DNA of 64,000 nucleotides from Polyangiales bacterium. Its GTDB lineage: Bacteria > Myxococcota_A > Polyangia > Polyangiales > Houyiibacteriaceae. Location: assembly GCA_965227405.1 (NCBI GenBank), contig OZ245758.1, forward strand, positions 1,321,693 to 1,385,692. Reading direction: 5' to 3'. Below are positions 6,634 to 36,541 of this stretch, piece after piece. How positions within the stretch are numbered: the stretch's first letter is position 1; every line of letters starts with the position of its first letter. The position numbers and the translations under genes were made by a program. The notes beneath the pieces are model-generated. The model had not been told where the DNA came from. It saw only the letters and a program-made list of their open reading frames with translations, and did no database searches.

Positions 6634-6732
6634 TGGCGAATCCTACTGAAATTTGCCCGGTGAGGTGAGTCCGCGCGTTGGATTTCCTGACACGACTTGA
6701 GAGGTGGGATCGATCTGCCGAATGTACGCGGC

Positions 6733-8337: not shown

Positions 8338-8347
8338 AGTCCCCGCC

Positions 8348-9019: not shown

Positions 9020-9021
9020 CT

Positions 9022-11145: not shown

Positions 11146-11343
11146 AGTCCAGCGTTCGAGGACGGTAGGAACGGCGGGTCAATGCAGGCACATCGCAGTG
11201 TCCGTACGCACGCAATCGCCGATCGCGCTTGGGTGAGACGGCAACAAAATCCCTTGTGATCTCGGCAATACCTGACGAACCCACGCTTTTGAAATGCCGG
11301 CTTGGGTCTTGCTCGTTTGCGCTGCGTGACCGATCCCATCCGC

Positions 11344-20317: not shown

Positions 20318-22609
20318 ATGGGGAAGGAGGAGACGCTCACAGACACGATCGCTGAGCTGGACCAGACGTTCGTACGCGATTCGAAGGCCGAGGGGGATTG
20401 GAGCGTCCAGCCTTCGGAGCGGTACGAGCTAGGCGCGATCGTCGGATCGGGGGCCCAAGGCGACGTGCTGCGTGCCACAGACCGCGTGCTCGGTCGGGAG
20501 GTTGCGCTCAAGGCGTTGCGTCAAGACGGGATCGACCTCGACATTGGCAACTTCATTCGCGAGGCGCGGCTGATGGCGCAGATCGGCCACCCCAACATCA
20601 TGCCGATCTACGACGCCGGGCTTCTCCCCGACGGGCGGCTCTTCTACACCATGCCGCTACTCGAGCAGCGCACCCTCGCAGAGTTGATCGTCCAGATCGC
20701 GATGGGCGAAGACATGCCACTCGTGCGAAGGATGCGTCTGTTCGCAAACGCGTGCACCGCTGTCCACGAGGCACATCTCAAAGGTGTCTATCACCGTGAT
20801 CTAAAACCGCACAACATGGTGATCGGCCCGAGCGGTGAACTCCTCGTGACGGACTTTGGACTCGCGCGACGAGAAGACGAGGAGATCGAAAAGCGCGATC
20901 CAAACGAAACCGGTCCGATCGGAACACCTCTGTACATGTCGCCAGAACAAGCCCGCGGAGAACCTGGTGATGTGTCCTCGGACGTGTACTCACTCGGAGC
21001 GATTCTGTTTGAGCTGCTGACGCTGGAGCGTCCCATCGAAAAGGACAACGTGGTCAAGCAGCTGGTCGCTGTGTTGCACGATGACCCGCCACGTGCGCAT
21101 GAAGTTCATCCCGAAGTTCCGCTCGATTTATCTGAGTTGGCCGCGCGTTGCTTGGCCAAACTTCCTGGCGATCGTCCTGAGAGTGCACTTGCCGTCGTCG
21201 AAGGAATCGAGGGATGGCTTGAAGGTCGCTTTGAAGATGAGCGGCGGAGGCAGGAGTGCCGCAAGCGCGTGGAACATGCGCAAGAGCGACTGGGAGTTGC
21301 AAAGCGACTGAGCACTGCGATCGGCGCGCTGCAAGGTCAGCTGCACGCGATGCGACTCGACACACCGGAACACGCACCGCTGAAGGTCAAACAACCGTTG
21401 TGGGAGATGGAAGGCAACATCGAGCGGCTTGTGTTGGAACGCGACGAAGCGGAGGAAGCCGCGGTCGCATCCTTGGAACTAGCCTTGCGAGCACGCCCGA
21501 AAGATCCAGCTGCATCCAGTACGTGGGTCGAGGTTCAGCTTCGGCGTCGCGAGCGGTTACTCGAAGCTGGACACGAAGTGCTTGCCCGGCGTGCGGCGGC
21601 GCGTGCGATCCGTGTCGGTGGTGATGTCCTGGAGCATCAACTTTACGGTGCCGGACGACTCTGGGTGCAGACCGATCATCCCGTTTGGTTGGAACGCTAC
21701 GCAGTACGTGGAGGCACACTCCAACCTAGCGAGCCCGTCGAAGTGCGGACCCAAATCGATCTCCCGCCGGGTTCGTATCGCTTGCGCGCCAACGTTGCGG
21801 GCGTCGATGTGTTTCTTCCCGTGTTGATCGAAGCCGGCGAAACGTTGCCCGTGGGCTTTCACCCCGGACTTCAGAGCGCGTTGCCGCAGGGGTTTGCGCT
21901 TGTGCACGCCGGTCGAACTCAGCTTGGTGGGGATCGCGATGCGATTCACTCCGAACCCGCGCGTGTCGTGGAGATGCACAGTTTTGGGATGGCGCGGCGA
22001 CCCGTGACTGCTGCCGAGTACCTCGCTTGGCTGCGGACGTTCGACGATCCCGAGACCGCGTTGTTGAAAGGACCGCGTGCGACACCAGATGGTGGTCCGT
22101 ACTGGAAAGTCGTGGACGGGTGCATCGTGATTCCCGTGGAAGACGACGATGGGGATGCGTGGGATCCGAACTTTCCGGTGTTTGGGATCACGCGTCGTGA
22201 CGCTGAGGCGTATGTCGAGTGGCGGTCGAAACGGGATGCTCGGCACTACCGGTTGCCGACGGACGATGAGTGGGAACGAGCCGCGCGAGGAGCGGATGGT
22301 CGACGCTATCCGTGGGGTGATCGTTTCGATCCTGCGTTGTGCAAGATGCGGCTTTCGCGTCCCGGTCAGTTTCGTCCTGAACCCATCGGTGCGTTTGCGA
22401 CCGATGTGTCGCCTTTCGGCATTGTGGACATGGCGGGTTCGATCGCCGAGTGGACCAGTTCAGCGTACCGTGATGATCCTGTGCATGTGAGTGTGCGGGG
22501 AGGTGCGTGGAGTAGTCGTGCGCATCGATGTGCGGCTTCGTTTCGGGGTTCGATGATTGTCGATCATCTCAGCGCGGACCTAGGGTTTCGTCTGGTCGTT
22601 GACCTGTGA
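20318..22609 (+). CDS. Ser/Thr protein kinase fused to a C-terminal FGE-sulfatase (SUMF1-like) domain
   Basis: Kinase: GSGAQGDVLRA, VALK, HRDLKPHNMVI, DFGLAR, SPEQ. C-terminus: GMARRPVTAAEYLAWLRTF...RGGAWSSRAHRCAASFRG, the formylglycine-generating-enzyme fold. Confidence 0.85.
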   Translation: MGKEETLTDTIAELDQTFVRDSKAEGDWSVQPSERYELGAIVGSGAQGDVLRATDRVLGREVALKALRQDGIDLDIGNFIREARLMAQIGHPNIMPIYDAGLLPDGRLFYTMPLLEQRTLAELIVQIAMGEDMPLVRRMRLFANACTAVHEAHLKGVYHRDLKPHNMVIGPSGELLVTDFGLARREDEEIEKRDPNETGPIGTPLYMSPEQARGEPGDVSSDVYSLGAILFELLTLERPIEKDNVVKQLVAVLHDDPPRAHEVHPEVPLDLSELAARCLAKLPGDRPESALAVVEGIEGWLEGRFEDERRRQECRKRVEHAQERLGVAKRLSTAIGALQGQLHAMRLDTPEHAPLKVKQPLWEMEGNIERLVLERDEAEEAAVASLELALRARPKDPAASSTWVEVQLRRRERLLEAGHEVLARRAAARAIRVGGDVLEHQLYGAGRLWVQTDHPVWLERYAVRGGTLQPSEPVEVRTQIDLPPGSYRLRANVAGVDVFLPVLIEAGETLPVGFHPGLQSALPQGFALVHAGRTQLGGDRDAIHSEPARVVEMHSFGMARRPVTAAEYLAWLRTFDDPETALLKGPRATPDGGPYWKVVDGCIVIPVEDDDGDAWDPNFPVFGITRRDAEAYVEWRSKRDARHYRLPTDDEWERAARGADGRRYPWGDRFDPALCKMRLSRPGQFRPEPIGAFATDVSPFGIVDMAGSIAEWTSSAYRDDPVHVSVRGGAWSSRAHRCAASFRGSMIVDHLSADLGFRLVVDL

Positions 22610-22612
22610 CGC

Positions 22613-23083
22613 TTAGGGTTTGTAGTCGTAGACGACGACATCGATGTCGTGGCTGACCAGTTCGGACTGGATACGGGCTTCGACTTCGTGCCATTTGCCC
22701 CCGGCCAGTCCACATCCGATGCGTGGCATGTGCACGCTCGCGTTGAGTTCGCGGGCTTTGTCGCGAGTTGCTGCGAGACCTTTGGCGATGGCGTCGTAGC
22801 GGACTGGCGGTACTCCGTTGACCGGCTTGTAGCCTTCTTGGCCGATGACGTTGGCGACCCAGAGCGAGTCTTCGACTTGGACGAACTGGGTGGCGCCGAG
22901 CGAGAAGCCTTCGCGGGAGCGGTACCACTCGCGGTATTTGCGTTCGGGTGTTTTCCAGCGGCGTGAGATGGCGACGACGAAGCCGGCGCCCCAACCGCCG
23001 CGGTCGTTGCAGACGTGAAGAAGGATTTTGGTTCCATCCCCGATTGGGCGTGTGGCGTCACCCTCGACGAAGCGAAGCGTCAT
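22613..23083 (-). CDS. Macro domain (ADP-ribose binding/processing) protein
   Basis: Start MTLRFVEGD (cat 23081-23083). ILLHVCNDRGGWGAGFVVAIS and HMPRIGCGLAGGKW match macro-domain motifs. Confidence 0.8.
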   Translation of the reverse strand: MTLRFVEGDATRPIGDGTKILLHVCNDRGGWGAGFVVAISRRWKTPERKYREWYRSREGFSLGATQFVQVEDSLWVANVIGQEGYKPVNGVPPVRYDAIAKGLAATRDKARELNASVHMPRIGCGLAGGKWHEVEARIQSELVSHDIDVVVYDYKP

Positions 23084-23116
23084 AAGCGAAGCGTCGCTTT
23101 CCTCCCAACCGGAATC

Positions 23117-23158
23117 AACCCACCCACGTGCTGCAGTACCCACCCACTTGCTCCAATA
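23117..23158. repeat. Tandem imperfect about 20-bp direct repeat (CCCACCCAC-N-TGC...TA)
   Basis: aacccacccacgtgctgcagta followed by cccacccacttgctccaata, 34 bp upstream of the macro gene start. Confidence 0.3.
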
Positions 23159-23281
23159 CCCCCAGCGTGCGCGCTGGACTGGTCGCTAGTTGCTGGTTAG
23201 CGAGCTCCGCCAGCTGCCGCGCTTTGCACTAACGACCCTCGCGGACCATCGGCGACGCTCGCTCGCCCACCCAAAGCACAA

Positions 23282-23312
23282 CGCGCCCTCCCGAGTCACT
23301 CGGCAGGGCGCG
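23282..23312. repeat. 31-bp near-perfect palindrome/hairpin 3' of the HUH gene
   Basis: cgcgccctcccgagtCactcggcagggcgcg; 15-bp arms with one mismatch; core ccgagtcactcgg is perfect. Confidence 0.45.
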
Positions 23313-23338
23313 CTTGGTGTTGTTCCGAACCTCCGCTC

Positions 23339-24253
23339 CTACGCGGCCTCGGCAGGTGGGTCCGCCCGACCCTCCACCTTCACGCCAAACAACACCCGCA
23401 TCTTCCACGTGCCCTCCGGAAACACACACGGCTTCCCAGCACAGTACTTCTCCAGCGCACTCTCGTACGCCTCTCCAAACGACTTCAACAACGACAACAT
23501 CGTCTTCCGCCGTTCACCACGTCCCGCAACACGCGGATTGATCCCCGTTCGCTTCGCCTTCGTACCCGGTCGCTCCCAAATACCCTGCTGCCGAATACGC
23601 TTCATCCCCAACGGACGCTCGGGCCTCGGGATCGCCCGCAACTCGCGATGCAACGTCGCCACCACTTCCTCTCGATCCCAATCCTCCAAACTTGGTGGCA
23701 TCTCCACACGCAACTTCATCCGCGTCGGCAACTTCGTTCGCTTCGAAGCACACTCCGGACGCTTCACATCGATCACCCTCTGACCCATGTCCTCCGGCTT
23801 CGACATCGAACCTTCCCACTGCGTCCACTTCGCGACCAGGCCAGAGAGCTTCGCGTTCCCCATCGTGTACACCAGCTTCTCAATCACGGTCAGGTCACAT
23901 GGCTTGATGTCGTTGCTCAAGTCCACCGCACTGATCTGCGAGCTGTTCCACACGCCTTCGTCAATATCTGGAAAGTGCCGTTTGAGAAGATTCGCAATGG
24001 TCTGATCCAAGTACTGATGAAAGAGCGGCGCCTTCCCATGCACATCGGTGATCACGATGTGAAAGTGGTTGCTCATCAAAATCCATCCATGCACACGCAC
24101 ACCGGTCCGAAACGCGGCATACGCAAGTGCAAAGAGAAAGATCTGCTTCACCACATCATCGCAGGGCGGAAACCGAAAGAACCGCTGCGACGTCCGACGC
24201 GTCAGCAAATAGGTAACGCCCTCGAGCACCATCCGAGCCTTGGACACGCCCAC
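23339..24253 (-). CDS. IS200/RAYT-like HUH (Y1) transposase-family protein with basic C-terminal extension
   Basis: HGWILMSNHFHIVI (HUH) and, about 55 aa downstream, KLVYTMGNA (candidate catalytic Tyr). The gene is visibly lower in GC than its flanks. 304 aa with a K/R-rich C-terminal half. Confidence 0.6.
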   Translation of the reverse strand: MGVSKARMVLEGVTYLLTRRTSQRFFRFPPCDDVVKQIFLFALAYAAFRTGVRVHGWILMSNHFHIVITDVHGKAPLFHQYLDQTIANLLKRHFPDIDEGVWNSSQISAVDLSNDIKPCDLTVIEKLVYTMGNAKLSGLVAKWTQWEGSMSKPEDMGQRVIDVKRPECASKRTKLPTRMKLRVEMPPSLEDWDREEVVATLHRELRAIPRPERPLGMKRIRQQGIWERPGTKAKRTGINPRVAGRGERRKTMLSLLKSFGEAYESALEKYCAGKPCVFPEGTWKMRVLFGVKVEGRADPPAEAA

Positions 24254-24281
24254 TCATCGGCCCAAGACGCGAGGAGTTGCG

Positions 24282-26366
24282 CTAAATCGGCGATGGAGGC
24301 GGTGCGACAGGATCGGTGGGTGTCGGCGGTGCCGGGGGCGGAGTGGCGCTACCGGAGGACAACCCCAAGTCGAAGTTCCGCCCCGCCAACACGGATGCCC
24401 AAGCGCTCGGACCGACCAGGTTAAACGTCCCGCCGTTCTCCTCGAGCGTCGTCGACGTCAACGCCTCGCCAGCACTCTCGACAATACAATTCGGGGTCAC
24501 AATCCCGATTGCATCCCCACCATTCGCCAGCATCAACACACACCCACCGCCCGAGCAATCACGCGGAACATCAAGATCAAAGTTCAAGCTTCCGATCTCC
24601 ACCTCACGTGTTGTGCCTTCGTTCGCGGTGATCCGAATCTCGTCGGCACGTCCGCCTTGCAAGAGCGTGCCGCCAAAACGCGCACCCATCACAGAACCCT
24701 CAGCGTCGTAAAACGCAATTCCCATGCGCTCGTTTGCCCGAAACTCGCTCCCGTCCACATCCACGTTCGCACCGACCGACGCTTCAATCCCACCACGACC
24801 GGCTCCCTCGAATCGTCCCCCGGTCACACTCACAGCATGCGGGCCGCTGATCTGAAAACCCACGTTGTCGCTACCATCGACCACGACCTCGGTCGCAGTG
24901 CTCGCGGTTGCGTGTGCATCACCGCTCAGAACGACACCACGAACCGACGCGTTTTCGACAATGGTATTGGTCAACGCAAACCGTGACGCGTCGTGCGCAA
25001 ACACGCCGACCTCCACATTCTGAAGCATCGCATCCGAGACCGTCACAACGCCTCCCGACAACGCTGCAACGCCGACGCCAACGTTGGCCATGCTCACATC
25101 ACCAAGGGTCAGCTCCGACCCGCGCACGCTAAACGCCGTCTCAACATCACTCGCTTCAACCGTCCCGGCAAGACCCGCCATACCGGCCTCCGCGACAAGC
25201 ACCCCAAGCGCTCCACCACTTAACTGATACGTCCCATCGGTCGATGTCAGTGTTCCTTCGCGTACATACGCATGCGTCGCCATTGTGCTCGTGGTTTCGC
25301 TCCGAAGTGCTCCAGCAAGGGTCACGCTGCCCGTATCCACGAACAAACCGGTCCCCTCTCCAAGCAGCTCAATGCTCACTGCGTCGCCCAACGTGACGTC
25401 CCCCGATGCGGCAACCAGACCAAATCCTGCGATGGCTGCAAAGTCGGTCCGCGCGACATCAACGCTGGCATTGTTGTCGACGATCAACCCCGCAACCGAC
25501 GGTCCTTGAAACAGAACACCGTCCAATGACGCCACACCGCCCCGAACTCGATTGTGTCCAAAGAACGCTCCATCGTCGGTTTGACCTCGCAGCTCCAGAT
25601 CAGGCCCCAAGGTCGCAGCAACCGCATCCTCTACCCACAGCCCCGCATTCCCGGCCAACACAAGCGTGCTCGTCATGACAAGAGTGCCACCACGGGAAAG
25701 CACTCCGTAGTTTCCACCGCTTCCCATAATGGTTGTGTTGGATTCAGTACGCAGCGTTGACCCCGGCGTCGCTACGACCGCCGCACGCTGAAGCGCAGCC
25801 GGTGCCGTCGCGACCGCACCGGTGCGCAACGTGGAGCCGCGCAACGTAGCTTGTGCACTCCCCTCGAGAACCACACTCGCCTGCACGTCCTGAAACTCGA
25901 TGTTCTCCAGCTCCACGATGACATCGCGCGCATAAACACCAACGGCACAGCCTTCGATGGTCACGTCTCGAATGGTGAGGCGCGCAGCCACGTTCACGGC
26001 CACCGGCGCGTCCTCCCGCACCGCGTCATCGAACGCATCGAGAATCGACACGCTCGCACATCCCAGCGATCCGCTCAGCAAGGTCTGTCCGGCTCCCGCA
26101 CCTTCAATGTTCACAGCCCGGTCGAAACTGTCCGGTAGCGTGAACGCGCCCACGCCCACACACACGCGGTCCCCACTCGCGCCAAGCGCCTCTTCCAACG
26201 TGCCAAAGGGCACGGCTTCCGTCCCGTTGCCCCCACTCGCACCACTTTCGACGTAGATGCAGTCAGACGGGCCAACGTCTGTTCCACCATCCATCGGCGG
26301 CATCCCGTCGTCGTCACCGCAGGCGAGTGCAAGCGCACAAAGAAAGACAAGAAGGAGGCGAATCAT
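24282..26366 (-). CDS. Secreted lipoprotein with right-handed parallel beta-helix repeats
   Basis: Start MIRLLLVFLCALALACGDDDG (lipobox LALAC). Long G/A/V/T-rich beta-helix-like repeats. C-terminal Pro-rich tail PPPAPPTPTDPVAPPPSP. Confidence 0.75.
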   Translation of the reverse strand: MIRLLLVFLCALALACGDDDGMPPMDGGTDVGPSDCIYVESGASGGNGTEAVPFGTLEEALGASGDRVCVGVGAFTLPDSFDRAVNIEGAGAGQTLLSGSLGCASVSILDAFDDAVREDAPVAVNVAARLTIRDVTIEGCAVGVYARDVIVELENIEFQDVQASVVLEGSAQATLRGSTLRTGAVATAPAALQRAAVVATPGSTLRTESNTTIMGSGGNYGVLSRGGTLVMTSTLVLAGNAGLWVEDAVAATLGPDLELRGQTDDGAFFGHNRVRGGVASLDGVLFQGPSVAGLIVDNNASVDVARTDFAAIAGFGLVAASGDVTLGDAVSIELLGEGTGLFVDTGSVTLAGALRSETTSTMATHAYVREGTLTSTDGTYQLSGGALGVLVAEAGMAGLAGTVEASDVETAFSVRGSELTLGDVSMANVGVGVAALSGGVVTVSDAMLQNVEVGVFAHDASRFALTNTIVENASVRGVVLSGDAHATASTATEVVVDGSDNVGFQISGPHAVSVTGGRFEGAGRGGIEASVGANVDVDGSEFRANERMGIAFYDAEGSVMGARFGGTLLQGGRADEIRITANEGTTREVEIGSLNFDLDVPRDCSGGGCVLMLANGGDAIGIVTPNCIVESAGEALTSTTLEENGGTFNLVGPSAWASVLAGRNFDLGLSSGSATPPPAPPTPTDPVAPPPSPI

Positions 26367-26369
26367 GGT

Positions 26370-27797
26370 TTGCTGAGCATACCCGTGCAGGAGGGCAAGC
26401 ACATCGACTGGCGCGACTGGCTTGCTGCATTCGCGGTGAGCATGGCGTGGGTGGCGTTGATTCGCCCCGGAGAACTCGATCTCCCGTATTGGTGGGACGA
26501 GGCCGACGTTTACGTCCCCGGATCCAAATGGGTGGCAGAACATGGTCTCACAGTCACACCGGGAATCTTTCCGGACGACTACAGCCGGGGTCACCCGATC
26601 TTGCTCTATTGGTTGGCTGGAGTCGCGTTCAACGCGTTGGGCCCAGGTCCTGTGGTCGGTCATCTCGTCGTGCTGCCGTTCACTGTGGCTGCGTTGGCGT
26701 TCACCTATTTGCTGGGTGCGCACGTGTTTGGACGACGTGCCGGGCTGGCCGCCGCAATCGCTCTCGGCACGACCCCGCTCTTCATGTCGATCGGCAACAT
26801 GCTCTTGCCGGAACTACCGATTACAGCGCTCGCAGTGGCATCGCTCTACGCGTACGCACGCAAGCGCACACTGTGGGTGATCGCGCTTGGTTGCGCGGCG
26901 GTTTGGATCAAAGAAACGGGAGTGTTCTGTGTTGCTGCAATCAGCGGGGCGGAGCTGTGGATGGCGTTGCGCACCCGAGAACGTCGACGTTGGATTCACG
27001 GACTGCTCCTAGGCACACCGGTGCTCGCGCTTGTTGGCTTCTTCGTCTGGCAAAAGGTCCACGCGGGCTACTACGTGTTCCCCCACCACGCGAACCTCTT
27101 TGCGGATCGCCCACTGGACTGGAGCAACCTCGCAACGGTCTGGCCCTCACTCTTGTTTTGGCACGGCCGCTGGGTTCTGGTGCTCGGTGCACTCGCCGCG
27201 CTCGCGTTCGGAAGAAGCGCATGGCCAACACCTGACAACCAACCACGCGTCGTCGTCGCCATGGTGCTGTTGGTGCTCGCGAACTTCGTGTTCTTCAGCA
27301 AGATGTTCTGGCTCGAACGCTACGCACTCCCGGCACATCCAGGAATCTTGGTGCTGCTTTCCGGAGCGTTGCTGTGGGGCGTCGGCAAGCTCCCGCGAGC
27401 ACGACGCACCGCACGCTTTCTTCCACTCTTGTGTGCAGCCGCCATTGGTTTGGGGAGCATGCGCACGGCAACGGCTCCCGATGAAGAAGAACATACGTTT
27501 GCATATGCGGATGCAATCGCATCACACCTGCAAGCATTCGAACATGTTCACGGCACGGTGTTGACTCCGTGGCCCATGACGATCGAGTTGCGCAATCCCT
27601 ACCTCGGCTACGTCGATTCTCCCTTCGAAGCGATTCACCCACGCAGTCACAACGGCGAACGCGTGGACTGCGTGCTCTTTGCGGAACACTCCTGGCGCGC
27701 GGATGAGTTGCGCCAAGAAGCACAGCGACAAGGCATGCATCGCGTAGACGTGTTCCGTGTTGGCGTCGCGCAAGGTCTGGAGCTGTGGTCGCGCTAA
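26370..27797 (+). CDS. GT-C family membrane glycosyltransferase (ArnT/PMT-like, GT39/83-type)
   Basis: About 11 TM helices with first periplasmic loop PYWWDEADVYVPGSKWVAEHG, an ArnT/PMT-like DE-containing loop. Strong SD aaggagg before a TTG start. Confidence 0.75.
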   Translation: MLSIPVQEGKHIDWRDWLAAFAVSMAWVALIRPGELDLPYWWDEADVYVPGSKWVAEHGLTVTPGIFPDDYSRGHPILLYWLAGVAFNALGPGPVVGHLVVLPFTVAALAFTYLLGAHVFGRRAGLAAAIALGTTPLFMSIGNMLLPELPITALAVASLYAYARKRTLWVIALGCAAVWIKETGVFCVAAISGAELWMALRTRERRRWIHGLLLGTPVLALVGFFVWQKVHAGYYVFPHHANLFADRPLDWSNLATVWPSLLFWHGRWVLVLGALAALAFGRSAWPTPDNQPRVVVAMVLLVLANFVFFSKMFWLERYALPAHPGILVLLSGALLWGVGKLPRARRTARFLPLLCAAAIGLGSMRTATAPDEEEHTFAYADAIASHLQAFEHVHGTVLTPWPMTIELRNPYLGYVDSPFEAIHPRSHNGERVDCVLFAEHSWRADELRQEAQRQGMHRVDVFRVGVAQGLELWSR

Positions 27798-29917
27798 ACC
27801 GGGATCACGGACTTGCCATCGCCGGTGTGTTCGCCGTCGCGGTGTGGTTGTTCTGGCCCATGGTTGTCGGTGTTCTCACGGGCGAACCACGCTGGTTCGA
27901 GTGGGACGTTCCCGAGCAGTACTGGCCCGACTTGGTCTACCTCTGCGACGCGCTTCACGAAGGCACGTTGCCCCTGTGGAACCCGTACGATCGCGCTGGC
28001 TATCCCTACTACGCGGATCCGCAAGCGGGCATGTACCACCCGCTCAACTGGGCCATCTGTGGTGTTGCCGGATCCAGCCCCGGACCTGCGTGGGCGGATG
28101 CACGCGTGGTGATCGGTTTTGTGCTCGCGGGCCTGTTTGGGTTGGGATGGCTTCGCGAAACCGGTGCGCGTTGGAGTGCATCGCTCGTGGGCGCAACACT
28201 CCTGATGGCCGCACCCTTCATGCGGCACAACTGGGAGCTCAACCTCACGGCTGGGTTTGCCTGGTGCGGTGCGATGTTGTGGGCTGCAGAGCGAGTCCTC
28301 AAACATCGAACATGGCGCGACGGGCTGTGGTTCGGTCTCGCGATCGCGGGTTGTGCGTGGGTCGGATCACCTCCCGCGCTTTGGCAAGCCAGTACGTTCA
28401 CGCTGCTCTACCTCGCAGCACGTTCCACGCAGTTGCCTGTCACGCGTCAGACGTTTGGTGCGCTCTCCATTGCTGCGGTGGCCGCACTTGGACTTTGCGG
28501 TGCTGTCCTCGCGCCTGGACTCACGCTGAGCGAACACTCGGTCCAAGCGGGACGAAGCCTCGCTTCGATCGCTGACGGCGCACTGCCTGCAGAGTACATC
28601 TCGGCAATCGCTGCACCGCGTTCAGGCAACCACTTGCACGTCGGTTGGATCGCGATGGCGCTTGGTGGGGTCGCACTGTTCCGACGCCCGCGGGGTTCGG
28701 TTGGGATGTGGCTCATCGCCGTTCTCGCGGTCGCGATGAGCTTCGGCGGTACGGTGTTCGAGTGGGCGTTCCACTGGGTTCCTGGAGTCTCGTTGTTTCG
28801 ACTCCCACATCGCTACGAAGCGTGGCTTGGACCCGCGTTCGCGTTCCTTGCTGCCCAGGGCGTCGATGTGTTGGTCGACGAGTTACGCGCACGTCAGATG
28901 CGTCCACCGATGTGGCTTGGCGCGACGATCGGCATCGCTGCAAGTGCGAGCTTCGCGCTCCTGGATGCGCAAGGGCTCACAGCGCTGCTCTTGGGTAGCG
29001 GTGCTGCCGTAGCTTTGTACCGCTTCAAGACACCTTGGCTGGGACTTGCACTCGGAGCCTTCGTCATGTTGGAAGTGACGATCGCAATGCCGTCGGAACG
29101 ACATCTGCGAACCGGCACACGCCCTGGCACAGACACCTCTGTACTGATCGACGACACGCGGCGCGAGTGGCGCTACATGGACGAGTTTGGGGTGAGTTGT
29201 CGCTCCGGAACCCGCACGCGACATCGTGAACTTCGCGGGTACCAAGATCCGCTCACCCTTCGTCGCTTCTCACGGTTCATCGAGTCACTGCGAGAGCACC
29301 CGCAGTTGGCGATGCAGCTCAACACACGTTGGGCGTTGCAGGGGCCCCACTTCATCCACGGTTGGGATCGACACTTTCTTCCACCCCCCGACGAACTGCA
29401 GCGACTTCCCGATACCGAGCGTCGGGACGCGGTGATCGAAATGCGCCAGGCAATGCCCTTTGCGTATTGGGTCCCGTGGGACGCGACCGAACAGGTCGAG
29501 GACGAAGACCTCGCGATGCAACATCTCAAGCGAGATGCGCCTGCTCGAGTTGCACTCTTGGAAGAAGTCGAAGGCGTCATGGGTGTCTTCGAGGGCCCGC
29601 GCAGCACTCATTTTGAAGAGGTTGACGCGTACGACGTGCAAGTAGACCGCGATGCGGTCCGCTTTCGGGTAGACGCACCGCAAGACGGCGTCGTCGTGAT
29701 CAATGAAGCCTGGTACCCCGGCTGGAAAGCTTGGGTCGACGACGAATCGACACCGGTGTTTCGCGCAAACCTACTCGTTCGTGCGATTCCGATCGAAAGT
29801 GGTGCGCACCGTATCGAGATGCGCTTTGAACCCGCGGATGCGAGCTGGCGAATCGCATGGTGGATGACCCTACTGGTAGTGCTGGCAACGCTTTTGGTTC
29901 GACGCCGGAAGACCTAG
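27785..29917 (+). CDS. YfhO-family membrane protein (GT-C-like glycosyl transferase candidate)
   Basis: Polytopic N-terminus plus a C-terminal periplasmic domain ending INEAWYPGWKAWVDDESTPVFRANLLVRAIPIESGAHRIEMRF and a final TM, the YfhO signature. GTG start overlaps the upstream stop. Confidence 0.75.
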   Translation: MVALNRDHGLAIAGVFAVAVWLFWPMVVGVLTGEPRWFEWDVPEQYWPDLVYLCDALHEGTLPLWNPYDRAGYPYYADPQAGMYHPLNWAICGVAGSSPGPAWADARVVIGFVLAGLFGLGWLRETGARWSASLVGATLLMAAPFMRHNWELNLTAGFAWCGAMLWAAERVLKHRTWRDGLWFGLAIAGCAWVGSPPALWQASTFTLLYLAARSTQLPVTRQTFGALSIAAVAALGLCGAVLAPGLTLSEHSVQAGRSLASIADGALPAEYISAIAAPRSGNHLHVGWIAMALGGVALFRRPRGSVGMWLIAVLAVAMSFGGTVFEWAFHWVPGVSLFRLPHRYEAWLGPAFAFLAAQGVDVLVDELRARQMRPPMWLGATIGIAASASFALLDAQGLTALLLGSGAAVALYRFKTPWLGLALGAFVMLEVTIAMPSERHLRTGTRPGTDTSVLIDDTRREWRYMDEFGVSCRSGTRTRHRELRGYQDPLTLRRFSRFIESLREHPQLAMQLNTRWALQGPHFIHGWDRHFLPPPDELQRLPDTERRDAVIEMRQAMPFAYWVPWDATEQVEDEDLAMQHLKRDAPARVALLEEVEGVMGVFEGPRSTHFEEVDAYDVQVDRDAVRFRVDAPQDGVVVINEAWYPGWKAWVDDESTPVFRANLLVRAIPIESGAHRIEMRFEPADASWRIAWWMTLLVVLATLLVRRRKT

Positions 29918-29953
29918 CTATCGCTTCCCGGCGAACCTGCTAGGTTCCGCGCG

Positions 29954-31771
29954 GTGAAGCCCTCGCCTCCGCCGAAGGGATACGCGGCGCAGATTCGTCT
30001 GCTCGTCGGAAACGTGCGGCGAGCCATCGGCATCGCGTGGCAGACCGAACGCAAGCTCACCAGCGCATACGTCTTCGCGAACATCCTCAACGCGTTACTT
30101 CCGGTCGCGATTGCCTACGTCGGTAAACGCATCGTCGACGCGGTCGTGACGGCGATGAACACCAGCGAAGATCCGACGGAGGCGTTGACCTGGGTCGCCG
30201 TCGAACTCGGTTTGATTCTGGTCAACCACATCTCGGGTCAGGCGATCGGCTACTACGGCCAACTGCTTCGGGCGCGACTCGCGATGCACGTCGACCAACT
30301 GATCTTCGAAAAGGCGCTGCGTTTGAGCGTGATGCACTTCGAAGACGCGGACTTCATGGACATGCTCGAACGAGCGCGCAAGGAGTCCGGCTGGCGACCG
30401 GTCGAGATGATCACCCACGGGCTGCGTCTGGGTCGCAACGTCCTGACACTCGTGGGCTACGCAGTCCTACTTGCCCAGTTCAGCGGCTGGGCTGTGGTCG
30501 CACTTGCTCTGGCGGGTCTGCCCTTTCTCGCCGAAACCAAGTACGCGTCGGAACAATACGCGATTCATCTTCGACGCACGTCACGCGAGCGACAGGCGTA
30601 CTACATGCAGCAACTGCTCACGAGCGACTACTACGTCAAAGAGGTCAAACTCTTCTCGCTCGGTCCCGAACTGCTTCGTCGACACCGCGACCTGCACGAA
30701 GGTTTTTATGACGAAGATCGCGCGTTCGCGTTTCGTCGCGGTGGTGCGGTCACACTCCTTGGTGTGTTGAGCACGGGTGTGTTCTACGGAATCTACGTGC
30801 TCGTGGTCGGCGCCACGATCATTAAAGAGATCACGCTCGGTGATATGACGCTTTACCTGACGGTGTTCCGCCAAGGTCAAAGCGCGTTTCAAGGCGCGAT
30901 GAGCAGCATTGCCCGCGCGTGGGAAGACAACCTCTACATGAACAACCTCTTTGAGTACCTCGCGCTCGAAGACGACGACATTGTCGAGACTGTGCTCGAC
31001 GACGAGTTCGACGAAGGTTCAGCACCCGCCATCAACTTTGAGAACGTGTCGTTCCAGTATCCGGGTTCTGCACGTCCGGCCTTGGACAACATCAACCTGC
31101 AGATTCAGCCCGGCGAGACTGTCGCGCTCGTGGGACCGAATGGAGCGGGAAAGACCACGCTCGTAAAGCTCCTGGTCGGTCTGTACGGGCTCAACGAAGG
31201 CAACATCCTGATCGACCAAGACAACGTGGCGGACATGGACCGCGGGGAGCTCCGCCGCCGCATCGGTGTGCTCTTTCAAGACTTTGTCCACTACCACTTC
31301 TCGGCGGCTGAGAACGTCGGCTTGGGTTGGCTTCCCAAACTCGACGATCGTGATGCGATTGTGAGGGCTGCATCCGATGCAGGTGCAGACGGCATCATCG
31401 AGTCGCTTCCCGAGTCGTACGACACCATGCTCGGTCGCTGGTTTGGCGGCGAACAGCTCTCGATTGGTCAGTGGCAACGGATGGCTCTCGCCCGAGCGTT
31501 CATGCGTCGCTCGAAAGTGTTGATTTTGGATGAGCCGACCGCGTCGATCGATGCAGAGGGCGAACACGAGATCTTCCAACGTTTTGGAGAGCTCAAAGAA
31601 GACGCCACGTGCATCTTGATCACGCATCGGTTCTCTACCGTTCGCATGGCGGATCGCATCGTCGTCTTGGAGGGAGGCACCATCGTCGAAGAAGGAACAC
31701 ACGACGAGTTGCTCGCTGCCGATGGTTTGTACGCGAAGATGTTCAATCTTCAGGCCGACGGATACCGCTAA
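29954..31771 (+). CDS. ABC transporter permease/ATP-binding protein (exporter, MsbA-like)
   Basis: Six-TM domain followed by Walker A GPNGAGKTT, signature LSIGQWQRMALARA, Walker B VLILDEPTASID and H-loop ITHR. Confidence 0.9.
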   Translation: MKPSPPPKGYAAQIRLLVGNVRRAIGIAWQTERKLTSAYVFANILNALLPVAIAYVGKRIVDAVVTAMNTSEDPTEALTWVAVELGLILVNHISGQAIGYYGQLLRARLAMHVDQLIFEKALRLSVMHFEDADFMDMLERARKESGWRPVEMITHGLRLGRNVLTLVGYAVLLAQFSGWAVVALALAGLPFLAETKYASEQYAIHLRRTSRERQAYYMQQLLTSDYYVKEVKLFSLGPELLRRHRDLHEGFYDEDRAFAFRRGGAVTLLGVLSTGVFYGIYVLVVGATIIKEITLGDMTLYLTVFRQGQSAFQGAMSSIARAWEDNLYMNNLFEYLALEDDDIVETVLDDEFDEGSAPAINFENVSFQYPGSARPALDNINLQIQPGETVALVGPNGAGKTTLVKLLVGLYGLNEGNILIDQDNVADMDRGELRRRIGVLFQDFVHYHFSAAENVGLGWLPKLDDRDAIVRAASDAGADGIIESLPESYDTMLGRWFGGEQLSIGQWQRMALARAFMRRSKVLILDEPTASIDAEGEHEIFQRFGELKEDATCILITHRFSTVRMADRIVVLEGGTIVEEGTHDELLAADGLYAKMFNLQADGYR

Positions 31772-31861
31772 GTCCCGCGTAGACCACAGAAAACGCGGAG
31801 TGGGTCGAATCCCCACAAATCCGTCTTGAAGCAATCGCCGTAGGGTGGCGTCCTATCGCGC

Positions 31862-33403
31862 ATGCAACGCATCTTGATCATCGCAGCGCTTGCCGCACCC
31901 ACATTCACCGGGTGTTCAGGCGCCGAAGAAGCCGCTGAAGCTGTCGAGGAGGCAGCAGGAGAACTCCAAGCCGCGGTGGAGACCACCCCAACGTCGGTCA
32001 TGGGAAAGATCGGTGGCACGGTCGTGCGCAGTGACCAGTTCTTTGTGGAAGTGCTTCCGCATCGAGACGGATTGGTGCAAGCGCTGGTGCTCAATGCCGA
32101 AGGTGAAGTGGTTCCGGACGCGGGTGCGCTCCAGGTCACGGTTGCCGCTGCGGATGGGTCACCGAAGAACGTCACGTTGGAATGGGATCCGATCGAGCGT
32201 CGCTACATCGGTGAAGTCGACGATGACTTGGCTGCAAGTGGAGCGGTGAGCGTTAGCGTGACCGCGGACGGGGCAACGCACACGGGAAGCGTGGCCAAGT
32301 TGGTCACTGCCCCGGAGAGCGCGGCACACGGCGGAACGGTTGTCGTCGCAGGTGAGTACTCGGCCGAGGTGTTGGGCAAGCCGGACGGAAGCGTCGTCGC
32401 GTACGTGAATGGTCCGGAGGGTCCGGTGCAAGCGGACGCGGACTTGAACCTGAAGGTGTCGCTCGATGCCGATGATGGCGAGTCACACGAAGTCCTCTTG
32501 GCGTGGAACCCCGAAGTTCAAGCCTACGTGTCACCGCCCCAACCGGATGTGACGTGGGTGGTCGGATCGATGGAGCTTGAGGTGGAGAAGGACGACACCA
32601 CCGCGGTTGCGCGTGTCGAGTCGGTGTTGCCGGCGCCTCCTGCCCCCACGCACGAAGGTGAAGTTGTTGTTGTGGGCGACATGAGCGTCGAGGTCGTCCC
32701 GGATGACGACGGCCTCAAGGCGTACGTAGTCGGTGCGGACGGCGCGATCACCGATCCGCAAGCGCACATCGTAGTCGTGGTGGACCAGCAGCCGGTCACA
32801 CTCACCTGGGATGCGGACGTGGGAGCATACAAGGCTCCGGTGGATGCGCGTTTGGATGTCGATGCCGCACCCGTGCACGTCGTGGTGACGCACCGCGGTC
32901 GTCGTCGTTGGGGAGGTTTCCGCACAGTCCACACGCCGGTGTTCCGACCCTGGCATCAGCGTCGTGTGACCGTGCGCGCCAACATGCCCGCGGCAGAAGC
33001 ACAGATCGTTGCAGCTCCTGCGGTTGGCCTCCGTTGGCGTGGTTCACGTGCACGGCTTCGTGCGCGTGGTGTTGCCGTGGGTCCGAGCGCGATGGTTCGC
33101 GTGACGCACCGCGGTCCCGGACCAGGCATGGTCTCGGTGCGTACGCCTGGTGCAACCGTCATGGTCAACGGCATGGGTGGCACGCGTGTTCGACTGCCTG
33201 GTGCAGGTGGCGTTCGGATCGGAGCGATGGGTGGCGTCCAAGTACGCACACCCGGCGGTGCAGTTCGTGTTCGCGCGCCGATGGGCGGGGTGCGCGTTCG
33301 ATCACCGATGGGGATGGCATCGGTCCGCGTGCGCGGCCCGGGAGGAAGCATCTCGGTCATGGCGCGCGCAGGCGGCATGGGCATGGGCATGCGCCGCCGC
33401 TAA
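31862..33403 (+). CDS. Repeat-containing lipoprotein with Arg/Gly/Val-rich periodic C-terminal tail
   Basis: Lipobox AAPTFTGCSG. Three repeats of about 70 aa (IGGTVVRSDQFFVEVLP..., HGGTVVVAGEYSAEVLGKPDGSVVAYV..., HEGEVVVVGDMSVEVVPDDDGLKAYV...). Tail of about 8 units of GGVRVRxPx. Confidence 0.65.
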   Translation: MQRILIIAALAAPTFTGCSGAEEAAEAVEEAAGELQAAVETTPTSVMGKIGGTVVRSDQFFVEVLPHRDGLVQALVLNAEGEVVPDAGALQVTVAAADGSPKNVTLEWDPIERRYIGEVDDDLAASGAVSVSVTADGATHTGSVAKLVTAPESAAHGGTVVVAGEYSAEVLGKPDGSVVAYVNGPEGPVQADADLNLKVSLDADDGESHEVLLAWNPEVQAYVSPPQPDVTWVVGSMELEVEKDDTTAVARVESVLPAPPAPTHEGEVVVVGDMSVEVVPDDDGLKAYVVGADGAITDPQAHIVVVVDQQPVTLTWDADVGAYKAPVDARLDVDAAPVHVVVTHRGRRRWGGFRTVHTPVFRPWHQRRVTVRANMPAAEAQIVAAPAVGLRWRGSRARLRARGVAVGPSAMVRVTHRGPGPGMVSVRTPGATVMVNGMGGTRVRLPGAGGVRIGAMGGVQVRTPGGAVRVRAPMGGVRVRSPMGMASVRVRGPGGSISVMARAGGMGMGMRRR

Positions 33404-33629
33404 CTCGACTCTGGGTTCGTTTCGGCGCAGTCTTCTTTCGAGAAGGCTGCGTCGACGCGTGTGCATCCGACGATGTGGTGGTTGCAGTGGACGCGGATTT
33501 ACCTGTGCGCGACCGGGGATTGGACGCTGCGAGGGCAAAGGGAAGGCAGCATGCACACAGGCAAACCCGCGTCATACAAGTACGGTTGCCCCGCACCCTC
33601 CAAACGGTTCATTTCTTCGTGCTGAGGTC

Positions 33630-34679
33630 CTATCGGGAGCGGACGACCACGCCGCCCGGCACCGATCCACCGGTGAGAAACGCGTCCATCGCCGCATCCG
33701 ACGCGAGGTAGCGGCGAAAGTACGCAGTCGCAATCGTGTTCATGCCCGCTCGCACCATCGCGTCATCAGCAGGCCCATCGGGACAGGCGCTGCACGTGAA
33801 TCCGCAGCCGGCAGTGTCCGACACGAAGTCCATGTGGTCGGCACCGGTGAAGTCCCACTCGATCGCTGCGCTGGCCGAACTGGACCCGTCGTAGAACGTC
33901 TGGAAGTTCTGGTCGGCGGGTGCGCAGGCCATACCGAAACCACCGCCGGTGGAGTTCGTGGTCTCGCCCATGTAGCCCACTGGAATCGTAAGCGTGGCGG
34001 TGAGTTCTGGGACGATGTCGGGCAAGGTCGCCGAGTAGCCCGTAAACGGATTGCCTCCGTTGACCGGATCGAGTCCCAAGAGCGCAGAGATTCGAGTGTC
34101 TGCGGCCGACACCATGGTCGCGACCTTGCCCCCCAAACTGTGGCCCATGATGCCGGTTGGAAGTGAACCAAAGCGAGCCGCCCAGTCGAGCACAGCGATT
34201 GCGTCGTCACGCATGTCGGTGTGACTGACTCCGATCAAGGTGGCGGGTGGATCGGCGCGCACGACCACAAACCCATGGCTTGCGACGTGCTCGCACAGGT
34301 CCGCGTAGCGTTCCGATCCCAGCTGAAAACCAGGCAGAAACACCACGATGCCTCGCGCGTCTTCCGGCACATAGGCAACCACGGGCACACTTCGTCCCGA
34401 CGCGGTGAGAGTGTCGGACTCGGTGGTGAACGTAGAGTCGCCACGCGTCGCTGGGGAGCCGGCCATCATAGTCCCAGTATCGATCGCGGGTACGTCGGGA
34501 GCGGGTGCATCAACACTTCCGCCATCGACCATCGCAGCGTCCTCACCTGCATCGCCGATCGACGAATCGAAAGATGTTGTATCTGTTGACGCGTCGCGCA
34601 CAGCGGCGTCCGGTGTTGCACCCGAGTCGTCACCACACGCAAGCGCGGCGATCACCACGCATCCAAGCACTCTATTCAT
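33630..34679 (-). CDS. Secreted lipoprotein alpha/beta-hydrolase (chlorophyllase/PAF-acetylhydrolase-like lipase)
   Basis: Lipobox VVIAALACGDD. Nucleophile elbow GIMGHSLGGKV. VVFLPGFQLGSERYADLCEHVASHGFVVV matches the chlorophyllase/dienelactone hydrolase N-terminus. Confidence 0.8.
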   Translation of the reverse strand: MNRVLGCVVIAALACGDDSGATPDAAVRDASTDTTSFDSSIGDAGEDAAMVDGGSVDAPAPDVPAIDTGTMMAGSPATRGDSTFTTESDTLTASGRSVPVVAYVPEDARGIVVFLPGFQLGSERYADLCEHVASHGFVVVRADPPATLIGVSHTDMRDDAIAVLDWAARFGSLPTGIMGHSLGGKVATMVSAADTRISALLGLDPVNGGNPFTGYSATLPDIVPELTATLTIPVGYMGETTNSTGGGFGMACAPADQNFQTFYDGSSSASAAIEWDFTGADHMDFVSDTAGCGFTCSACPDGPADDAMVRAGMNTIATAYFRRYLASDAAMDAFLTGGSVPGGVVVRSR

Positions 34680-35358
34680 CGATCATCTCCGGAGGCACGC
34701 TGTCGCGACGCTGTTTGTCCGCCAGTGCCCGCAACATCTTTCGACGCAACACCACCAAAAGTCGCTCGCTCAACTCGGATGCCGTCGCGACCATCGCAGG
34801 AAGTGCATCCGACTCGAGATTCGGCATCACGCCTTCTTGGAAGAGCTCCATCTCCAGTCGAGCCAACTCGCGAACCGCTTCCATGTACGGCGCGAGCATT
34901 GTGTAGGGCAGCATGTCCGCGCTCAGTCCCGCTCGCCGAGCTGCCCCAAGAATTCGAAGCAGAGCAAGGTCATCACCGCGATACCCCTCGACCCCGTCGA
35001 CTTCGGTCTGCGTCACCAAACCCAGCGACTCGAAGAAGCCCAGCTGCTCAGCCGGCACCCCAGCCTTCAAAAGCTCGGCTCGAGTCTTCACATCGCTGTC
35101 GGATCGACCCAGCGCCAGTTCGATCGCGTCCGGTAAGGCCAGTCCTCGATCGGCCCGCTCGAGCACATCTCGAATGACCGGGAGCGGCAGAAATCGGTCG
35201 CGTTGAAGCTCTCGGATCGTGTGGATCCGAGGCACCAACGAAGGGTCGTAGTAGGCCATGTTCCGACTGGTTCGCTCGGGTTTCGGAAGCAAACCGAGTC
35301 GGATGTAGTGCTTGATCGTTGGGCCTGGAACGCCAGAGAGGCGGACCAGCTCGCTCAT
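34672..35358 (-). CDS. MerR family transcriptional regulator
   Basis: N-terminal HTH MSELVRLSGVPGPTIKHYIRLGLL. Overlaps the downstream lipase gene by 8 bp, so they form an operon. Confidence 0.85.
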   Translation of the reverse strand: MSELVRLSGVPGPTIKHYIRLGLLPKPERTSRNMAYYDPSLVPRIHTIRELQRDRFLPLPVIRDVLERADRGLALPDAIELALGRSDSDVKTRAELLKAGVPAEQLGFFESLGLVTQTEVDGVEGYRGDDLALLRILGAARRAGLSADMLPYTMLAPYMEAVRELARLEMELFQEGVMPNLESDALPAMVATASELSERLLVVLRRKMLRALADKQRRDSVPPEMIDE

Positions 35359-35392
35359 TTTCACTAGTTTTTTCGCGGGTTTTGCCACAAGT

Positions 35393-35416
35393 TGAAAGTG
35401 CTACTTACAACTTTCA
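35393..35416. promoter_or_regulatory. 7-10-7 inverted repeat TGAAAGT-N10-ACTTTCA upstream of the MerR gene
   Basis: tgaaagt (35393-35399) and actttca (35410-35416), about 35 bp upstream of the MerR start. Confidence 0.3.
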
Positions 35417-35460
35417 CTACAGCAGACAAAGGAGCCTCCTCACACCGACGAGGGCTGGGC

Positions 35461-36514
35461 CTAACGAGCTTGGAGAACGAACCAAGCAGCGGTCGCAAGT
35501 GCCGCGAGGAGCAGCAATCCAACCATGGCGACAATGGGCTGTCCCCACGCTGTTTGCTTCAACGTTGTCGCTTCGGTGGGGTGCCCGTCACCTTCGAACA
35601 TCCCCGGAGGGGGCAGGAACACGCCCGAGCGCTCCACATCTTCGGCGGGATCGGCGTACGGCTCTAACGCTGCGGCAAAGGTGTCAACGTCCTTGGGGCG
35701 CTTTCCGCGCCGACTGCTCAACGAACGCATGATCGTATCGCGAACCGGATCGGGCAGGTTGTGCTGAAAGGGCCGTACCCGATCGCCAAGCTTGCCAATC
35801 TTGAGTGCTTGGAGGCTGGTGGGATCAAAGGGCGCTACACCTTCGAGCATCGTGTAGAGCACGCATGCGATCGCGTACACATCGCAGCGCCCGTCCAGGT
35901 CTTTCGCACCCTGCATCTGCTCGGGTGACATGTACAACGGAGTGCCCATCACCAAGCCAGTCTTGGTGATCGTCAGTGCCTTGGTCGGATCCACACGCTT
36001 GGAAATGCCGAAGTCCAACACCTTCACCTTGGGGTCGTTCCCGTCGGGATCGGTGCACAAGAAGATGTTGTCCGGTTTGAGGTCGCGGTGCAAAACGCCA
36101 CGGCGATGCGCGGCCGACACTCCGGCACATACGTCGAGGATCAACCGCAACGCGCGTCCCATCTCCATCGGCTTGCCTGCCATCGCTTTGGAGAGCGGGT
36201 TGCCTAAAAGACGCTCCATGACGAGATACACACCGCGCGGGTGATGTCCGAAGTCGAATACGTCGACCACGTTCTCGTGCTGGATGCGACCTGCGTTGCG
36301 CGCCTCGCGAAGCAAGCGTTGCGCGTACTCCTCATCGGAACTCGAAGCCGCAACGAACTTCACCGCAAGTTCGCGTTGGGTCATCACATGCTCGGCGGAA
36401 TGGACGATGCCCATCGCACCACGACCTAGAACACCGGTGATGCGATACTTTCCGTCGAGCACTTCGCCGACTTCGAGCACCTCCAGAGCATAAGCCCAAT
36501 CGGGGCTGACCACG
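35461..36514 (-). CDS. Ser/Thr protein kinase
   Basis: GRGAMGIVH, AVKFV, HRDLKPDNIFL, DFGISK, SPEQ. Start uncertain: the ATG at 36669 would overlap the divergent cyclase gene, so I propose GTG at 36514. Confidence 0.8.
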
Positions 36515-36541
36515 AACCCTGAGATCCGTACTCTCGGAAAG

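Follow-up and report, generated by a model that had tools for sequence, protein, structure and literature searches.

What does a compact group of four long genes, two of them coding for membrane glycosyltransferases of different families, do in the chromosome of a Polyangiales bacterium? The genes are found between positions 24282 and 31771 of a 64,000-nucleotide stretch of contig OZ245758.1 (GenBank assembly GCA_965227405.1, positions 1,321,693 to 1,385,692 of the forward strand), which we refer to as the window and to which all coordinates below belong unless another locus is named. The listing of open reading frames (ORFs) and their translation agree with an initial annotation of this DNA, in which three tightly linked genes on one strand diverge from the gene of a putative lipoprotein. 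The three genes code for an enzyme similar to the GT39/PMT_2 glycosyltransferases (GT39-like from here on), a YfhO-like enzyme and an ATP-binding cassette (ABC) half-transporter. With moderate confidence, we consider that they are the conserved core of a Polyangia-specific system of lipid-linked extracytoplasmic (periplasmic) glycosylation. The evidence comes from the recurrence of the three genes in related genomes, the folds and conserved residues of both enzymes, and the sugar genes that surround their relatives.

The synteny was analyzed with one genome per species, and 46 loci were recovered, all in metagenome-assembled genomes (MAGs) of Polyangia or Myxococcota. Adjacency was counted only in the loci with enough room around the YfhO-like gene, 42 for the GT39-like gene and 41 for the ABC gene. 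In 21 of the 42 loci the YfhO-like gene was immediately preceded, on its own strand, by the GT39-like gene (27 if a distance of 10 kb is allowed), and in 12 of the 41 it was immediately followed, again on the same strand, by the ABC gene (25 within 10 kb). Within this distance, 16 of the 41 loci lack the ABC gene and 15 of the 42 lack the GT39-like gene, so that the three genes form a frequent rather than an obligatory unit. Still, the synteny expected in related genomes was found across many Polyangia species, and recurrence in dozens of them places the arrangement far beyond chance. The homologues of the locus proteins came, without exception, from Sandaracinaceae, Polyangiales or Myxococcota MAGs.

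The 16 loci without the transporter are also the first argument for a different explanation, i.e., that the ABC protein is functionally unrelated to the pair of glycosyltransferases and is a mere frequent neighbor, exporting for example the product of a set of deacetylase, glycosyltransferase family 2 (GT2) and radical-SAM genes. In several loci the ABC gene is 1–9 kb away from the YfhO-like gene or on the opposite strand, and in other Polyangia species a gene of ca. 700 codons, a fusion of polysaccharide deacetylase, GT2 and radical-SAM domains, is often found directly after it. Besides, the known systems with enzymes of the GT-C fold use GtrA, SMR, MATE or Wzx flippases (PMC8035078, PMC11127046). 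However, the ABC gene is directly downstream and on the same strand not only in the 12 loci mentioned but in all four close relatives, even in the absence of the radical-SAM genes, and it stayed inside the block when the whole group was inverted in one of them (L047, described below). A reciprocal scan from the ABC side, carried out over metagenome contigs, provided seven loci, too few for statistics; among them, the ABC relatives at least 71% identical and with usable flanks adjoined a YfhO-like gene in all three informative cases. Taking both sides together, we regard an unrelated transporter as possible, if rather unlikely.

The GT39-like protein had been called a GT-C membrane glycosyltransferase, and the call is supported in two ways. 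Its match to PMT_2 (PF13231) narrowly passes the gathering threshold (27.6 bits for a cut-off of 26.1), and comparison with solved GT-C structures assigned both membrane proteins of the locus to the GT-C fold (GT-C_A class). The AlphaFold2 model, built on 50 homologues and confident, with a predicted local distance difference test (pLDDT) score of 90.7, consists of a multi-helix membrane domain and a small alpha/beta domain at the C-terminus, about residues 375–475. The periplasmic loop motif PYWWDEADVY, already highlighted in the initial annotation, is present directly after the first transmembrane (TM) helix, which spans residues 14–31 of the model. Within the motif W42, D43, D46, V47 and Y48 are invariant over the 50 homologues and E44 is conserved in at least 90% of them. 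It is in the loop after TM1 that the catalytic acidic residues of GT-C enzymes are located (PMC11127046), and alignment and model together point to D43, E44 and D46 as candidates for this role. Invariant acidic residues just past TM1 are a property of both GT-C proteins of the locus.

More than 100 homologues of the GT39-like enzyme, with 43–80% identity, were found in Sandaracinaceae and Polyangiales MAGs. PF13231 is precomputed on most of the 120 homologues listed and PF02366 on two distant ones. Several of the 120 have the NCBI name “glycosyltransferase family 39 protein,” and “ArnT family” is also used for these homologues. The description of the enzyme as ArnT-like holds for the fold and the Pfam family and goes no further: neither the ArnT model nor a PMT equivalog appeared among its NCBIfam matches, and no arn-like genes (the ArnA, B, C, D, E, F context) were found in the 64-kb window. 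Similarly, a protein O-mannosyltransferase would be recognized by PF02366 together with a MIR domain, and the window protein matches PF13231 only. Searches of the PDB by sequence and profile with both GT-C proteins, with their alignments and with the lipoprotein gave nothing usable, and only the fold comparison was informative.

The assignment of the second enzyme to the YfhO family needs more qualification. Directly compared with PF09586 it scores 24.1 bits, below the cut-off of 28.5, and the alignment is limited to residues 618–683, equivalent to positions 759–825 of the 835 in the profile; its orthologues reach 23–35 bits over the same short stretch. On the other hand, a profile of this YfhO-like family recovered 64,639 representative proteins at E ≤ 1e-3. 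Out of ten distant relatives sampled, eight score 45–92 bits on PF09586, and the sampled proteins align to our profile with E of about 1e-60, most of them in a single full-length stretch. One distant relative (P0380) also matches the membrane region of PF09586, at model positions 121–435. Since these distant relatives are PF09586 members, the window protein can be taken as a divergent YfhO-type GT-C enzyme. The family name given originally therefore survives through homology with full-length relatives and not through the direct score, and what sequence comparison justifies, only transitively, is a divergent YfhO subfamily.

The predicted structure is in agreement. In the model (pLDDT 90.2) helices extend to residue 432, a beta-rich extracytoplasmic domain occupies residues 440–683, and a last helix (684–709) is followed by a terminal RRRKT, i.e., the polytopic N-terminus, large extracytoplasmic domain and C-terminal TM helix of the YfhO-type architecture. 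Here the first-loop motif is FEWDVPEQYWPD, located after helix 2–32, and its residues E39, D41, E44 and D49 are invariant among 57 homologues. Among the NCBIfam matches of the locus proteins, a weak one to “AZOBR_p60025 cell surface glycopolymer formation” (36.6 bits for a cut-off of 150) was not taken as membership. We also considered that the GT39-like and YfhO-like genes might be paralogues derived from a duplication, an idea that was rejected when profile–profile comparison showed no relationship between them.

The third protein is, as proposed, a half-size ABC exporter. Its membrane domain is N-terminal and its ATPase domain C-terminal; it matches ABC_tran with 118.5 bits (ABC_membrane gave 21.1, under its cut-off of 28) and preserves intact motifs (Walker A at 394–401, the signature LSIGQ at 502–506, Walker B at 523–529 and the H-loop at 556–559). 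The alignment to MsbA-type models is full-length, and that to the Sav1866 and MsbA chains covers residues 40–600. In the synteny scan it is the best-conserved member of the trio, with 54–77% identity, and over all the related loci compared the identity is 54–89%. That it works as a flippase is something that we purely infer.

The similarity to MsbA brings in a second alternative, a lipopolysaccharide (LPS) or lipid A module in which the transporter would be an MsbA-like flippase of lipid A-core and the ArnT-like and YfhO-like enzymes would decorate lipid A, the core or the O-antigen. The equivalog models do not favor it, with scores of 262 for TIGR02203 (MsbA) and 220 for NF008381, far from the cut-offs of 602 and 867, respectively; PglK (NF050066) was missed as well, with 138.6 for a cut-off of 1000. 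Neither an ArnB-type aminotransferase nor a formyltransferase was found among the recurrent neighbors, not every ORF of these loci being annotated. The genes that accompany the ABC gene are of the glycan and radical-SAM kinds and not lipid A genes, and the large beta-domain of the YfhO-like enzyme, together with its AftD-like match, indicates a polymer acceptor. We consider an LPS or lipid A module improbable.

If the three genes are the core of a lipid-linked glycosylation system, its steps could be the following. A polyprenyl phosphate would be charged with a sugar by a cytoplasmic GT2 encoded away from the window, as the biology of GT-C enzymes leads one to expect, and the lipid-linked sugar would then be moved to the periplasmic face. 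There, both GT-C enzymes, acting in sequence or as a complex, would transfer sugars to an envelope acceptor by means of the acidic residues of their first loops. The ABC transporter might flip the lipid-linked donor or an oligosaccharide, as PglK does, or might export the acceptor polymer; PglK is the precedent for flipping of lipid-linked oligosaccharides. Our best guess is that the acceptor would be a surface glycopolymer or an LPS-linked glycan, and the glycopolymer is favored because of the AftD-like fold and large beta-domain of the YfhO-like enzyme and because of the polysaccharide-type neighbors in related loci.

These neighbors were identified by clustering, and at least one accessory sugar gene was present in 28 of the 46 loci. 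A GT2 of ca. 265 amino acids, found in 12 of the 46, has its best NCBIfam matches in PpgS (polyprenyl-phospho-GalNAc synthase), dolichyl-phosphate hexose transferase and AglJ, the PpgS score being 66.9 bits, far under the cut-off of 370. There is also a nucleotide-sugar dehydrogenase (314 bits for a subfamily cut-off of 189.8), an epimerase/dehydratase of the short-chain dehydrogenase/reductase type, a glycosyltransferase of family 4 and radical-SAM proteins separate from the fusion described above. When the recurrent neighbor families were searched in the window no sugar-pathway gene was found, and the lack of these accessory genes indicates that the window holds a stripped-down core. Neither was a GtrA, SMR, MATE or Wzx flippase found among the annotated ORFs of the window, in which small ORFs were not searched exhaustively. 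The lipid-linked sugar transfer pathway suggested in the initial annotation is consistent with the GT-C folds, the synteny of the trio and the PpgS-like GT2 and nucleotide-sugar genes of related loci; the window itself contributes none of the latter.

Two other features of the related loci can be mentioned. The deacetylase-GT2-radical-SAM fusion is an unusual combination of domains (examples are L012 12394–14484 and L016 12901–14367). A short-chain dehydrogenase gene, missing from the window, adjoins the four-gene block in three loci (L047 5646–6485, L048 2871–3701 and L049 429–1259), and in L028 and L032 a similar adh_short gene separates the GT39-like gene from the YfhO-like one.

Several points weigh against a lipid-linked glycosylation core. 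The 64-kb window contains no donor synthase, nucleotide-sugar gene or GT2, and no member of a known flippase family was found among its annotated ORFs; the trio is incomplete in the loci counted above; and the YfhO-like protein stays below the direct Pfam cut-off. The ABC protein reaches no equivalog cut-off that would assign it a substrate. We know of no characterized three-component system in which a type IV ABC exporter flips a polyprenyl-phosphate monosaccharide. Finally, all the evidence is computational and comes from MAG sequences and predicted structures.

The divergent gene raises the question of whether the lipoprotein is the acceptor. It is contained in a minus-strand ORF (24282–26723), in which an internal ATG at 26366 is the most plausible start. 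The N-terminus, MIRLLLVFLCALALAC-GDDD, is signal-peptide-like and carries, by eye, a relaxed lipobox-like LALAC; the consensus of the orthologues (n = 5) keeps LACGDDD, with Cys16 itself outside the listed invariant columns. The beta-helix repeats and the Pro-rich tail proposed for it are both there, the former as matches to Beta_helix (PF13229, 51.4 bits, cut-off 25.9) and NosD (PF05048, 25.7 bits, cut-off 23.6), and the latter as a Pro/Thr/Ser-rich C-terminus ending in ATPPPAPPTPTDPVAPPPSPI. Among 5.8 billion proteins searched, only four homologues appeared, with 64–97% identity. Each of them is encoded next to a GT39-like gene and in divergent orientation, with a gap of 19–79 bp, and no copy was present in any of the 46 loci of the synteny scan. 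The lipoprotein is, then, a clade-restricted add-on, tightly tied to the core within a narrow clade.

This distribution bears on a third alternative, dedicated protein O-glycosylation, in which the GT39-like enzyme, possibly with the YfhO-like one, would modify Ser/Thr in the Pro/Thr/Ser-rich tail of the lipoprotein during export. Comparable cases are the actinobacterial Pmt that acts on lipoproteins and the streptococcal GT-C systems whose targets are disordered regions rich in Ser/Thr. Residues 483–694 of the lipoprotein, the C-terminal third with the tail included, are near-invariant. However, the core is far more widespread than the lipoprotein, which cannot therefore be its general acceptor, and we find a system dedicated to this tail unlikely. 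Instead, the lipoprotein could be a clade-specific substrate of the glycosylation core, or a partner that binds or processes glycans. Many secreted beta-helix proteins do one or the other. A second secreted-type beta-helix protein (6697–8337, plus strand; Pect-lyase_RHGA_epim, 40.2 bits) is encoded 18 kb upstream.

The organization of the genes (Table 1) provides further indications. The ORF of the GT39-like enzyme is open from 26370 to 27797, and its start was placed at GTG 26385 by the alignments of homologues and by a 98%-identical database protein of 470 amino acids. With this choice, the start codons of the lipoprotein and GT39-like genes are separated by 18 bp, as compared with 19, 19 and 79 bp in relatives. 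Such a gap is insufficient for two promoters, so that, unless the transcripts are leaderless, each promoter has to be located within the opposite gene. A scan for promoters and terminators found no sigma-70-like sites in the region and fewer terminator-like sites than in shuffled controls, and was uninformative on operon structure. The spacer between the YfhO-like and ABC genes had been given as 37 bp; the close downstream placement of the ABC gene is right, and the spacer measures 36 nt. The base composition of the four-gene region is uniform with its surroundings.

Table 1. Coordinates of the features of the four-gene region within the window.
Feature	Position	Strand	Details
Putative beta-helix lipoprotein	24282..26366	minus	694 aa; start ATG at 26366 read from sequence
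Divergent gap	26367..26384		18 bp between lipoprotein start and likely GTG of GT39-like gene
GT39/PMT_2-like GT-C glycosyltransferase	26385..27797	plus	470 aa (475 aa from TTG 26370)
First-loop motif PYWWDEADVY of GT39-like enzyme	26484..26513	plus	residues 39-48
13-bp overlap of GT39-like stop codon and YfhO-like GTG start	27785..27797	plus	
YfhO-like GT-C glycosyltransferase	27785..29917	plus	710 aa
First-loop motif FEWDVPEQYWPD of YfhO-like enzyme	27896..27931	plus	
ABCB-type (type IV exporter) half-transporter	29954..31771	plus	605 aa

The overlap of 13 bp between the two GT-C genes, noticed from the beginning, is exact according to the ORF coordinates and is kept in three relatives (L047, L048 and L050). 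At the level of sequence, it suggests translational coupling of the GT39-like and YfhO-like genes. A bolder version of the glycosylation model can be built on it, in which both enzymes would form a heteromeric GT-C pair, kept at a fixed ratio through the overlap and fed by the ABC exporter as a new class of polyprenyl-phosphate-sugar flippase, to build or decorate a glycoconjugate specific to Polyangia. In this clade the acceptor of such a pair could include the beta-helix lipoprotein, by O-glycosylation. We would give this version little probability.

The unity of the four genes is illustrated by L047, in which the lipoprotein, GT39-like, YfhO-like and ABC genes (6482–14334) are inverted as a unit with respect to 24282–31771 of the window. 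The flanks remain colinear, with the alpha-2-macroglobulin, PBP1C and kinase genes on one side and, on the other, a lipoprotein gene whose product is 73% identical to that of 31862–33403. Over 22500–33500 only short inverted-repeat pairs at chance level were detected, none of them at the boundaries of the block.

The edges of the block have features of their own. On the ABC side, the gene at 31862–33403 (plus strand) codes for a predicted lipoprotein of 513 amino acids (MQRILIIAALAAPTFTGC) with several internal repeats of ca. 60–100 residues (GEVVVVGDMSVEVVPDDDGLKAYVVG) and a C-terminal tail that is long and rich in Arg, Gly, Val and Met (GGVRVRSPMG…MGMGMRRR). No Pfam or NCBIfam family is matched by this protein. 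It is 73–76% identical in relatives, where its gene flanks the block without inverting with it. On the opposite side, between the kinase-FGE and beta-helix genes, two minus-strand genes (22613–24253) are missing in the closest relative with the same orientation, L048. One codes for a protein of 304 amino acids with the HUH/Y1 motif “MSNHFHIV” and weak similarity to REP-associated tyrosine transposases (RAYT; 23.8 bits for a cut-off of 80), and the other for a protein of 176 amino acids with a weak macro/DarG-like match. A different RAYT-like gene is found in L047 at the other edge of the inverted block.

How does the locus compare with systems already known? Multi-component transmembrane glycosylation systems have been described (PMC8035078, PMC11127046), and in the three-component ones the donor synthase may be unlinked (PMC8035078). 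One of the closest is CsbB/GtcA/YfhO, which acts on the teichoic acids of Bacillus, Staphylococcus and Listeria (PMC8035078, PMC5836110). The YfhO-type membrane domain, the extracytoplasmic domain and the C-terminal anchor are shared, the donor inferred is in either case a polyprenyl-phosphate-sugar, and the donor synthase can be unlinked, as in Staphylococcus aureus. In contrast, the host here is a diderm myxobacterium, which has no teichoic acids, and the protein is divergent, sub-threshold on PF09586 and directly alignable only over its C-terminal ca. 65 residues. It has, moreover, a second, unrelated GT-C partner and is linked to an ABCB-type exporter instead of a flippase of the GtcA/GtrA type. 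The GtrA/GtrB/Gtr* systems of O-antigen modification and the ribofuranose system with a MATE flippase (PMC11127046) follow the same logic of lipid-linked monosaccharide donor, flippase and periplasmic GT-C; in these systems the GT-C sometimes has a carbohydrate-binding domain, and the flippase family varies from one to another (PMC11127046). They differ from the present locus in its two tandem GT-C enzymes and type IV ABC exporter, and in the window lacking a GtrB-like gene and an O-antigen cluster.

The individual proteins can also be compared with characterized ones. In structural alignment the GT39-like enzyme has 16% identity with ArnT, from which it is also separated by the lack of an equivalog match and of arn operon genes in the window. 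Compared with Pmt1/2/4 and the actinobacterial Pmt, it has neither a PF02366 match nor a MIR domain and is much smaller (470 amino acids), and only one clade has the candidate substrate. The YfhO-like enzyme has 12% identity with mycobacterial AftD and half its size. With respect to AftD and the PpgS/Rv3779 pair, the decaprenyl-phosphate-arabinose (DPA) pathway is absent here, and the GT2 of related loci remains far under the PpgS cut-off. With PglK and MsbA the ABC protein shares the half-transporter architecture, with full-length alignment to MsbA and Sav1866, but stays under every equivalog cut-off. What sets the locus apart from known multi-component systems is the tandem of unrelated GT-C families, the ABCB-type exporter in the place of the flippase, the diderm host and the divergent YfhO subfamily. 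A literature search on YfhO in myxobacteria, PF09586 and AZOBR_p60025 found no description of the operon; the orthologues in MAGs are already automatically annotated with family names.

The rest of the neighborhood is that of a typical myxobacterial chromosome, with alpha-2-macroglobulin and PBP1C, Ser/Thr kinases, adenylate cyclase and TetR regulators. An alpha-2-macroglobulin of 1971 amino acids is followed, with an overlap of 4 bp, by a PBP1C-type bifunctional penicillin-binding protein (11302–19469), and the next gene codes for a Ser/Thr kinase that carries a fused FGE-sulfatase domain (20318–22609); each of the three is 80–84% identical in relatives. A block of ca. 4.6 kb (33630–38221), with a chlorophyllase/PETase-like alpha/beta hydrolase, a MerR regulator, a Ser/Thr kinase and a TPR-adenylate cyclase, is absent between the orthologous flanking genes of L047 and L048. 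Farther along, at 44354–52824, two giant proteins of 1470 and 1353 amino acids are encoded by adjacent genes that overlap by 4 bp. VIT and TPR domains are common to the two, and the second carries VWA and TonB_C-like domains in addition.

Polyangia are a group known for social behavior and rich envelopes. To our knowledge, work on GT-C enzymes of the YfhO and PMT_2 types has dealt almost only with the decoration of Gram positive cell walls, the modification of lipid A and protein glycosylation in eukaryotes. The practical value of the locus is modest until a cultivable host and the acceptor are identified. Should the heteromeric pair with its new kind of flippase turn out to be true, a YfhO-type enzyme of a diderm bacterium would for the first time be given a function. 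More generally, the conserved, lineage-wide pairing of GT39-like and YfhO-like enzymes in diderm Polyangia offers a well-defined candidate, accessible to genetics, for an undescribed surface glycoconjugate, and the system would test whether ABC exporters can replace the small flippases of three-component glycosylation.

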